NCBI GenBank assembly: GCA_016217925.1
Contig: JACRFK010000003.1
Coordinates: 143,656 to 207,655, forward strand
Length of the DNA stretch: 64,000 bases
Source: Candidatus Kaiserbacteria bacterium
GTDB taxonomy: Bacteria; Patescibacteriota; Minisyncoccia; Phycocordibacterales; UBA2100
Direction of reading: 5' to 3'
Part shown: piece by piece, positions 42,054 to 43,404 of the stretch
How positions within the stretch are numbered: the stretch's first letter is position 1
Layout: every line of letters begins with the position of its first letter
Made by a program: the position numbers and the translations under genes
The notes under the pieces: generated by a model
What the model saw: only the letters and a program-made list of their open reading frames with translations
Database searches by the model: none
What the model was told of the DNA's origin: nothing

Positions 42054-43342
42054 GTTTTCAATGCATTCGCGCCCGCAAACGCAGCTTTGTCTCCGAGCTG
42101 CTCTTCGATTCGCAGGAGCTCGTTGTACTTCGCCACGCGGTCGGTGCGGCTCATGGAGCCGGTCTTTATCTGCCCGGTGCCGAGGCCGACGGAGAGATGC
42201 GCGATGGTCGTGTCTTCCGTCTCACCCGAGCGGTGCGAGACGATCGCATGCCATCCGGCCTTGTGCGCCATATCCACCGCCGCAATTGTCTCCGAAAGCG
42301 TTCCTATCTGATTCACTTTTATCAAAATTGCGTTCGCGGCTTTTTCTTTGATGCCGCGCTCTAAGAATTTCACATTGGTCACGAGAAGGTCGTCGCCTAC
42401 CAGTTGCGTCGAGTCGCCAAGTTTCGCGGTAAGTTCTTTCCACCCGTCCCAATCGTCCTCCGCCAGCCCGTCTTCAATAGAGCGGATTGGGTATTTCTTT
42501 TGCAGTTCTCCGTACCAAGCGACCATCTCCGCGGAGTTGCGCTCCGCACCTTCGCAGGCGAGTTTGTAGGTATTGTTCTCGAACATTTCGGAAGCCGCTG
42601 CATCCAACGCGAAAGCGATATCGCTCCCCGGCTTGTACCCTGATTTCTCGACGGCCTCGGTAAGAAGCGCGAGCGCTTCGACATTTCCGCCTTTGACCTT
42701 GGGGGCAAATCCGCCCTCGTCGCCCACGGTCGTGCCGTACCCCTTTTCCTTGAGAACGGTTTTGAGAGTGTGGAATACTTCCGTCATCATGCGCACGCCC
42801 TCGCGGAATGTGGGCGCGCCGACGGGCATAATCATGAACTCCTGTATGTCGGTCGACTCCCATGAGGTATGCGCACCGCCATTGAGAACGTTGCATTGCG
42901 GTAGCGGGAGCGTCATCTCCCGTTGCGCCGATGAAAGCCCGTGTACATATTCGTAGAGCGGCACGCCGCTTTCCGCCGCCGCCGCTTTCGCCGTTGCGAG
43001 CGAGACTGCAAGTATCGCATTTGCACCGAGGCGTTTCTTGTTCTCGGTCCCATCAAGCGCGATAAGCGCTTCATCTATCTCGGCTTGAGCACTGGCATCT
43101 TTCCCGACCATGGCTTGCGCTATCTCGCCTCGTACATTCTCTACCGCTTTTGAAACTCCCTTACCCCCGTAGCGTTTTTTGTCTCCGTCCCGCAATTCAA
43201 CCGCTTCGTGAATGCCTGTAGAGGCGCCCGACGGCACCGCGGCGCGGCCTATCACGCCGTTATCCAGTACCACATCCGCTTCCACCGTGGGATTCCCGCG
43301 CGAGTCGAGAATTTCGCGGGCATGGACGGATGCGATTTTCAT
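42050..43342 (-). CDS. eno: Enolase (phosphopyruvate hydratase)
   Basis: [15 protein letters not shown]-terminus and full-length enolase conservation. The ATG at 43342 overlaps the uORF TGA. Confidence 0.95.
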
Positions 43343-43404
43343 CCCGCTCTTTCTATACTGATAATCGGGCGGTGATACGTAGCGTATGAAAGGGCGGGAT
43401 TCAT
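43339..43404 (-). promoter_or_regulatory. Inverted-repeat leader module, copy C, with 21-aa u[24 protein letters not shown]
   Basis: Arms are catcccgctctttctata at 43340-43357 and gaaagggcgggattcat at 43388-43404. The stop TGA overlaps the eno ATG. Confidence 0.55.

Follow-up and report, generated by a model that had tools for sequence, protein, structure and literature searches.

Short repeats that live within or beside bacterial genes have been described in several forms. Correia elements of Neisseria are an example of transposable elements of the miniature inverted-repeat type (MITEs), and Rickettsia palindromic elements (RPEs) are said to be palindromic selfish elements that are tolerated inside genes, RNA genes included. 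Repetitive extragenic palindromic (REP) sequences and REPINs create no target duplication, carry a GTAG-type conserved head and are extragenic. Mycobacterial interspersed repetitive units (MIRUs) are direct repeats, often in tandem arrays, without dyad symmetry. A MIRU can lie at a start codon with an element-borne open reading frame (ORF) that overlaps the downstream gene by 4 nt, and this -4 overlap is the commonest arrangement for translational coupling (PMC12548453). In mycobacterial leaderless transcripts, the sole role of a short ORF can be to bring a ribosome to the downstream start that it overlaps (PMC12548453, citing Shell et al. 2015). Here we analyse a 64,000-nt stretch of DNA (the window) from Candidatus Kaiserbacteria, a member of the Candidate Phyla Radiation (CPR), in which a 58-nt hairpin element, copy C, lies across the start codon of the enolase gene eno. 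Comparison with relatives shows that copy C is an insertion, and we think it rather likely that this insertion is MITE-like, struck a leaderless gene at +2 and was rescued by termination at an upstream ORF (uORF) and reinitiation on the gene itself.

An insertion at the enolase start codon

Because eno is a minus-strand gene, copy C has to be read on the minus strand (Table 1). On the plus strand it appears as catcccgctctttctata at 43340-43357 and gaaagggcgggattcat at 43388-43404, with a gap of 30 nt; on the eno strand it reads ATGAATCCCGCCCTTTC, 30 nt, and then TATAGAAAGAGCGGGATGA. The initial annotation of this locus had described a leader module with arms ATGAATCCCGCCCTTTC and GAAAGAGCGGGATGA 30 nt apart, and all of its details were confirmed. 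Copy C is a single unit between inverted repeats rather than a direct or tandem repeat, and its terminal inverted repeats, TCCCGCCCTTTC and GAAAGAGCGGGA, are complementary at 12 of 13 positions. The gap between the upstream major facilitator superfamily (MFS) transporter gene and eno is 76 nt long and reads TAA-tatataatgcgggc-ATGAA-TCCCGCCCTTTC-atacgctacgtatcaccgcccgattatcagta-TAGAAAGAGCGGGA-TGAAAATC... on the coding strand. The right ATG is the true eno start: the Pfam Enolase_N domain begins at residue 3, and homologues open with MKI(A/R)S. The two ATGs are 62 nt apart (phase 2), and the uORF that begins at the left one is not in frame with enolase and closes at a TGA overlapping the eno ATG, as the initial annotation had proposed.

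The start codon had also been placed within a 12-pair stem, and the predicted RNA fold agrees, comprising 12 Watson-Crick pairs, one C.A mismatch, a bulge and 4 further pairs, with the A and U of the eno AUG forming the outermost pairs of the stem. The computed stability is -23 kcal/mol over 85 nt (z = -2.7 against shuffled sequences, with 2 of 200 shuffles as stable).

Comparing the eno 5' regions of related genomes was the check put forward with the initial annotation, and its outcome speaks against a leader that belongs to enolase. The enolase of the window is 100% identical to an NCBI protein from a Candidatus Kaiserbacteria bacterium. Four relatives could be read at the eno start (L245, L244, L003/L004 and L001/L002), with enolases 80-87% identical. 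The order MFS-eno-phosphatase is common to three of the four; L244 is a short contig in which only the conserved MFS 3' end was seen. The hairpin module was found at the eno start in none of the four. At the empty site, three relatives have a -10-like box (TATACT or TATAAT) followed by 6 nt and the ATG, so placed that the box stands directly ahead of ATGAAA; it is not obvious in L001/L002. The empty sites read TATACTgtatccATGAAAATTGCATCC in L245, TATAATgccggcATGAAGATT in L244 and TATACTacctccATGAAAATC in L003, and the filled site in the window reads TATAATgcgggcATGAA[58 nt]TGAAAATCGCATCC. In the closest context, that of L245 (Kaiserbacteria GCA_009694875.1), ...ctcTAATATACTgtatccATGAAAATTGCATCC corresponds to ...cttTAATATATAATgcgggcATGAA[58 nt]TGAAAATCGCATCC in the window. 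Alignment with the relatives leaves a clean block of exactly 62 extra bases in the window, equal to the 58-nt element plus a second TGAA. Copy C is thus flanked on both sides by TGAA, and the unfilled site, ATGAAAAT, is present in the relatives. The eno site is therefore polymorphic, filled in the window and empty in all four relatives. The original eno ATG remains at the left end of the element, and because the element ends in A, which joins the second TGAA, a start codon and an intact eno frame were rebuilt at the right end.

Two further observations concern the same DNA. On the strand opposite eno, at 43336..43365 (+), the conserved right end of the element reads CTTTCTATACTGATAAT and contains two -10-like hexamers, TATACT and GATAAT, the latter paired by a promoter scan with TTTTCA 18 nt upstream; this is a possible antisense promoter whose scan score was no better than chance. 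We also considered and rejected an intrinsic terminator of the MFS gene, since the 3' arm is followed by AUGAAAAUCGC with no U tract and no terminator was called on the minus strand.

A dispersed family with a constrained reading frame

Copy C is one of several. The window contains 3 matches to the 18-mer TATAGAAAGAGCGGGATG at up to 3 mismatches (0.05 expected) and 3 instances of the two-arm pattern (0 expected). Copy C is indeed the shortest, at 58 nt compared with 89 nt for copy B and 97 nt for copy A. The uORF of copy A has 34 codons, is open and ends at ATGA. Copy B is in frame with its His_Phos_1 host gene rather than in the coupling frame, and its uORF stops after 7 codons; the M29 peptidase gene upstream of copy B ends 2 nt before the left ATG. 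Outside the window, a scan of genome contigs with a 16-mer of the 3' arm returned matches that were nearly all due to chance, the sole real one being L028 (Kaiserbacteria UBA10103), which carries 2 copies, on the start codons of rplX and map, with flanking repeats TGAA and TGAT. A search of public metagenomes with the two-arm pattern identified at least 120 contigs, and the matches listed comprise 108 unique sites, to which all site counts below refer. An exact 4-nt flanking repeat was present at 48 of the 108 sites and a 5-nt repeat at 4 of them, compared with 7% when flanks were paired at random. The flanking repeat co-varies with the site (TGAA, TGAG, TGAT, TGGG, TGGA, TAAA, TACA(A), TTAA or TTGA). 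Elements are 50-109 nt long and contain no transposase gene. No viral contig among those scanned carried the two-arm pattern, and RNAalifold over the copies paired only the arms, which the search pattern fixes, and found no interior structure.

Thirty-seven unique sites among the matches listed are built like copy C, in the order ATGNN, element, TGNN, with the right ATG opening the long ORF of an ordinary gene. Host genes include lysS, murA, eno, murG, fmt, thyA, map, infC, ppa, recR, rplX, rpmI and others, and orientation is uniform, with the conserved right end beside the gene in every start-site copy. In 30 of the 37, the two ATGs are spaced by 2 mod 3, the one phase that ends the uORF at the ATGA overlap (binomial p=3e-9). 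Element lengths of 58, 61, 64, 94, 97, 100 and 103 nt recur, and out-of-phase lengths are singletons. At the 75 sites listed that are not start sites there is no bias toward the ATGA-ending phase. The frame is also kept free of stops: among the 30 in-phase copies, interior stops occur in 2 in the uORF frame, compared with 16 and 18 in the other two frames (Fisher p=2.5e-6). The uORF peptides share only the arm-encoded MNPALS...ERAG, and since their interiors are not conserved, it is the act of translation that appears to be selected and not the peptide. Together, these comparative data show strong selection for a uORF that remains open and closes precisely at the ATGA overlap, and they support the earlier idea of a coupled uORF. 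A G-to-A mismatch variant of the arm, GAAAGAG, is found at 27 of the 37 start sites and 18 of the 75 others (matches listed; p=1e-6), and by computation costs about 7 kcal/mol of stem stability.

The native flanks of these sites point to a particular kind of promoter. A TATAAT or TATACT box 6 nt before the start codon is the geometry of leaderless genes, as in actinobacteria and Deinococcus. In 20 of 36 flanks a TANNNT box stands 4-11 nt (mostly 6-7 nt) ahead of the left ATG, compared with a rate of 8% for control ATGs of the same contigs (p=3e-13), and a Shine-Dalgarno-like motif is present in only 3 of 37 native flanks. Judged from the -10 geometry and the empty sites, eno was probably leaderless before the insertion, that is, without an mRNA leader, and many genes in Kaiserbacteria-like genomes seem to be so. 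From the empty-site alignment and the -10 spacing, we infer that the left ATG is now the 5' end of the mRNA.

Copies were also observed in RNA genes and in promoter boxes. In CPR contigs, hairpin elements of about 60-100 nt are inserted in 16S (L129, L171, L243) and 23S (L165, L237) rRNA genes and in RNase P-like RNA (L209 and the L155/L173/L193 group). One 16S insertion lies directly after CCGTAAACGATGGACACTAGATGAGTG, in the helix 26 region, and the insertions resemble rRNA intervening sequences. In L181 (3203..3372), L211 (1741..1847) and L150 (780..990), arms of the form TCCCGC(C/T)CTTTC...GAAAGGGCGGGA bracket a complete tRNA gene, Val-GAC or Thr-TGT according to ARAGORN, and replace the anticodon arm of an outer tRNA-like gene; in L150 that outer gene is itself bracketed by the arms of a sister family described below. 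The 5' arm matches the anticodon arm of E. coli tRNA-Glu; the sole CPR tRNA-Glu(UUC) in the examined loci has a different arm, and this lead was dropped. In L136, L160, L223 and L180 and in L149/L158/L177, copies lie within a TACAAT -10-like box (duplication TACAA or TACA) situated 6 or 11 nt upstream of the downstream ATG, and in the first four of these contigs the gene starts M(A)TQF(N/D)EKKQ.... TACAAT is regenerated at both halves, since T is the first and A the last base of the element.

Table 1. Features of the eno locus and of the repeat copies in the window (window coordinates).
Feature	Position	Strand	Remarks
eno (enolase, 430 aa)	42050..43342	-	ATG at 43342..43340
MFS transporter gene, upstream of eno	43419..44702	-	stop 14 nt before left ATG
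native -10-like box TATAAT	43411..43416	-	6 nt (GCGGGC, 43405..43410) upstream of left ATG; leaderless-type promoter geometry
left ATG, original eno start, now uORF start	43402..43404	-	from empty-site alignment and -10 spacing
left target-site copy TGAA	43400..43403	-	
inserted element, 58 nt, TCCCGCCCTTTC...GAAAGAGCGGGA	43342..43399	-	last A is the A of the eno ATG
hairpin 5' arm AUCCCGCCCUUUC, left terminal inverted repeat	43388..43400	-	
hairpin 3' arm GAAAGAGCGGGAU, right terminal inverted repeat	43341..43353	-	holds the C.A mismatch and the A and U of the eno ATG
conserved right-end subterminal motif	43354..43364	-	TTAT at -22..-19, TA at -13/-12
right target-site copy TGAA	43338..43341	-	with the element's terminal A restores ATGAA
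uORF, 21 codons + TGA	43339..43404	-	TGA (43341..43339) overlaps eno ATG (ATGA)
copy A, 97 nt (20875..20971)	20871..20976	-	duplicated TGAG; on lysS start codon (ATG 20875..20873)
copy B, 89 nt (31866..31954)	31862..31959	-	duplicated TGAA; on His_Phos_1 start codon (ATG 31866..31864)
sister element TCCCGTTAGAAAT...ATTTCTAACGGGA, 86 nt	52336..52430	+	duplicated TGCG; stem about -44 kcal/mol, z -4.3
sister element CCCCGTTAGAGGC...GCCTCTAACGGGG, 81 nt	1572..1662	+	duplicated TTGA

How a gene behind the element may be expressed

The explanation we favour runs as follows. A non-autonomous, MITE-like palindromic element of 58 nt with 12-nt terminal inverted repeats, moved by a putative mobilising enzyme, entered eno at +2..+5 of a probably leaderless mRNA and duplicated TGAA. 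Transcription would then begin at the left ATG, driven by TATAAT and its 6-nt spacing, and ribosomes would start at the 5'-terminal AUG and translate the 21-codon element-borne uORF, a step that the selection on frame and openness supports. Elongating ribosomes would melt the hairpin that otherwise holds the eno AUG, terminate at the UGA that overlaps it (AUGA) and reinitiate on enolase, by analogy with coupling at -4 overlaps. The hairpin itself is the inverted repeat of the element, a by-product of mobility rather than a regulator, and appears to be a liability. The absence from relatives, the unrelated host genes and the target duplication together indicate a mobile insertion tolerated by its host and not a dedicated regulator of eno.

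Several points weigh against this account. Seven of the 37 start-site copies, copy B included, are out of phase or stop early in front of apparently intact essential genes, so coupling cannot be the sole route of expression. Initiation at a 5'-terminal AUG might be impeded by the GC-rich stem itself, which begins at +5. Conservation is confined to the arms and about 12 nt beside the right arm, and interiors are only weakly alike or unalignable, which is unusual for a MITE family. Neither the window nor about 125 CPR loci yielded an autonomous partner, sought as an arm pair 0.3-4 kb apart with a duplication. A simple MITE model also fails to explain why the same arms surround complete tRNA genes in some contigs. 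Finally, the metagenome set was selected by exact arms, so it is no gauge of arm conservation or stem covariation, and some of its sites are orthologous, so the counts are not fully independent.

A stronger version of the same idea, which we regard as possible though rather doubtful, is that the family is aimed at leaderless start sites and promoter hexamers and has ends built to be harmless there, making it a transposon specialised for leaderless translation. Duplications do fall on TGAA at +2..+5, on TACAA inside TACAAT -10 boxes and on TTGA inside a TTGACT -35-like box, and targeting may work, for instance, through recognition of DNA opened by RNA polymerase. The element ends have suitable traits: a terminal A that restores the ATG, stops in two frames beside the gene, and a uORF end of ...ERAG-UGA. 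This ending is reminiscent of IRAG-P, the arrest motif of SecM, and might keep the ribosome at the overlap. On such a reading, relatives of the transposon would carry whole tRNA genes between the same arms.

The rival accounts differ in how the right ATG is reached. The same mobile element could carry its own promoter, its own ribosome-binding site or both at the right end, with the eno transcript beginning within the module or with direct ribosome binding at AGAAAG; the uORF would then be incidental to enolase expression. The right end is far more conserved than the left (TTAT at -22..-19, with three positions at 92-95% and the fourth at 70%, and TA at -13/-12), and in all start-site copies it is this end that adjoins the gene. 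TTGC at -36..-33, present in about 55-65% of copies, yields a TTGCnn-17 nt-TAGAAA-7 nt-ATG geometry, and AGAAAG in the 3' arm is complementary to the 16S 3' end CUUUCU, ...CCUCCUUUCU, seen in related contigs. Such an account would also cover out-of-phase copies such as B, which must be expressed somehow. Against it, the TTGC motif is missing from copy C, and the consensus has no T at -5..-12, so the native TANNNT box, 6-7 nt before the ATG, cannot be present in the right end; on that ground we rejected the idea that the element itself holds a leaderless-type promoter serving the right ATG. Shine-Dalgarno sequences have a usual spacing from the start codon, and only 6 nt separate the end of AGAAAG from the AUG, about 5 nt less than is usual for that part of the anti-Shine-Dalgarno sequence. 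Nor does this account, which we judge unlikely, explain why frame and openness of the uORF are so strongly selected.

The initial annotation had treated the module as a leader of enolase, and a dedicated cis-regulatory leader is a second rival, whether it senses temperature, switches under the control of a protein or metabolite, or attenuates by way of the uORF, with the AUG-sequestering hairpin recruited to co-regulate many genes. The stem does hold the AUG, the arms are far better conserved than the interior, and the genes behind two of the three window copies, eno and the His_Phos/phosphoglycerate-mutase-like gene, are related to glycolysis. Yet the module is absent at eno of close relatives, about 37 unrelated genes without functional coherence carry it at their start codons, and the same hairpin lies within 16S, 23S, RNase P RNA and tRNA genes of other CPR contigs. 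The interior has no conserved structure or sequence able to bind a ligand, start-site copies are enriched in the stem-weakening mismatch, and a 4-nt target duplication has no role in an RNA switch. In Rfam, a search of the whole window returned only a tRNA at gathering scores, and a local scan at E<=10 gave noise (best E 2.9). A leader specific to eno or glycolysis is ruled out by the empty sites and the unrelated hosts, and a leader serving a broader regulon is, in our estimate, quite improbable. Recoding is more improbable again. A -1 slip at G_GGA_UGA, or a hop from the left to the right AUG, would give an extended enolase or bypass the element; the take-off and landing contexts are identical (AUGAA...AUGAA), GGA-UGA after the Shine-Dalgarno-like AGAAAG resembles known frameshift contexts such as those of prfB and dnaX, and in a sister element of the window (copy D, 52341..52426) and in L141 the two ATGs are in frame and open, so that extended proteins are possible there. 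A hop needs no open uORF, however, and yet openness is selected; an added 21-36 residues would probably not be tolerated by ribosomal proteins L24 and L35 or by IF3; and recoding is unnecessary where the -4 overlap already provides the commonest coupling arrangement (PMC12548453).

Sister elements, annotation and likeness to known systems

A sister family with arms YCCCGTTAGA...TCTAACGGGR shows the same flanking-duplication behaviour and has 3 copies in the window. The element at 52336..52430, copy D, covers the start codon (ATG 52426) of a gene for an RluB/RsuA-like pseudouridine synthase; with 90 nt between its two ATGs, which share an open frame, the protein may carry an N-terminal extension. 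In the element at 1572..1662, the right TTGA copy forms a promoter-like pair, TTGACT-16 nt-TATACT, and a terminator-like hairpin, gacccgcctctggcgggtcttttt, follows about 70-80 nt after this pair; the region 1659..1785, between uvrC and carA, may give a small transcript. A perfect 13-bp palindrome with a 3-nt loop (CCCCGTTAGAGGCgatGCCTCTAACGGGG) at 14007..14035 lies in the uvrB coding sequence at about residue 345, between the UvrB_inter and Helicase_C domains, without a flanking duplication, and could be a collapsed copy of the sister element inside a protein gene. The longest inverted repeat of the window, at 56768..56835, has overlapping arms of 36 nt that are 72% complementary, with C6 and G6 at the ends.

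These elements matter for annotation. Gene callers extend ORFs into them, as in the 498-aa lysS ORF (19418..20914, minus strand, TTG at 20914) and the 230-aa phosphatase ORF (31216..31908, minus strand, ATG at 31908). Because these longest-ORF starts lie in frame within elements, automatic calling would add 13-14 spurious N-terminal residues. Genes for rRNA, RNase P RNA and tRNA are likewise interrupted by these hairpins. The phosphatase is one of three His_Phos_1 (phosphoglycerate-mutase-like) paralogues within 12 kb on the minus strand: two (40873..42053) lie directly downstream of eno, and the third (31216..31866) carries copy B.

A literature search on MITEs and on leaderless genes in CPR found no description of this element. 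It offers a second, independent case, from a very distant uncultured group, in which a selfish repeat persists at start codons because it brings a translationally coupled mini-ORF. The evolutionary signature is unusually clean, with lengths that differ by multiples of three and a uORF frame that is nearly stop-free, and it shows selection in nature for ribosome delivery by a non-coding 'uORF'.

Among known systems, MIRUs are closest in arrangement. As in MIRUs, the element is oriented with its host gene, leaderless genes abound in the host phylum, copy C has the 4-nt ATGA overlap (with 30 of the 37 start-site copies listed in that frame), and insertion is proposed to come at little cost in expression. 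Unlike MIRUs, the element is a single unit with 12-nt terminal inverted repeats and a 4-nt target duplication in a CPR host, and it also lands in rRNA, RNase P RNA and tRNA genes. A hairpin over the start codon, which MIRUs lack, follows from the repeats being inverted rather than direct. The leaderless uORFs of mycobacteria likewise comprise a short ORF whose only role is to deliver ribosomes to an overlapping start, whereas here the uORF is supplied by a mobile element and opens with the former start codon of the host gene.

In build, the element resembles bacterial MITEs: it is small, has no transposase coding, carries terminal inverted repeats, creates a short target duplication, exists as dispersed copies that are present or absent among related genomes, and would form a hairpin in transcripts. 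It departs from them in a poorly conserved interior, the copies not being alike along their whole length, and in being strongly associated with start codons, with element length constrained by reading frame. RPEs also are palindromic and tolerated within genes, RNA genes included, owing to where and how they are inserted, but they are in frame and translated within the host protein, in contrast to the 30 of 37 listed start-site copies here, which are out of frame with a stop overlapping the start. REP and REPIN sequences differ from the present element, which has a 4-nt duplication, arms that begin TCCCG, and copies on start codons and within RNA genes. As judged from its sequence and distribution, the element is one that lacks the homogeneous interior of a MITE but has most of its other traits, and that works like a MIRU while being built like a MITE.

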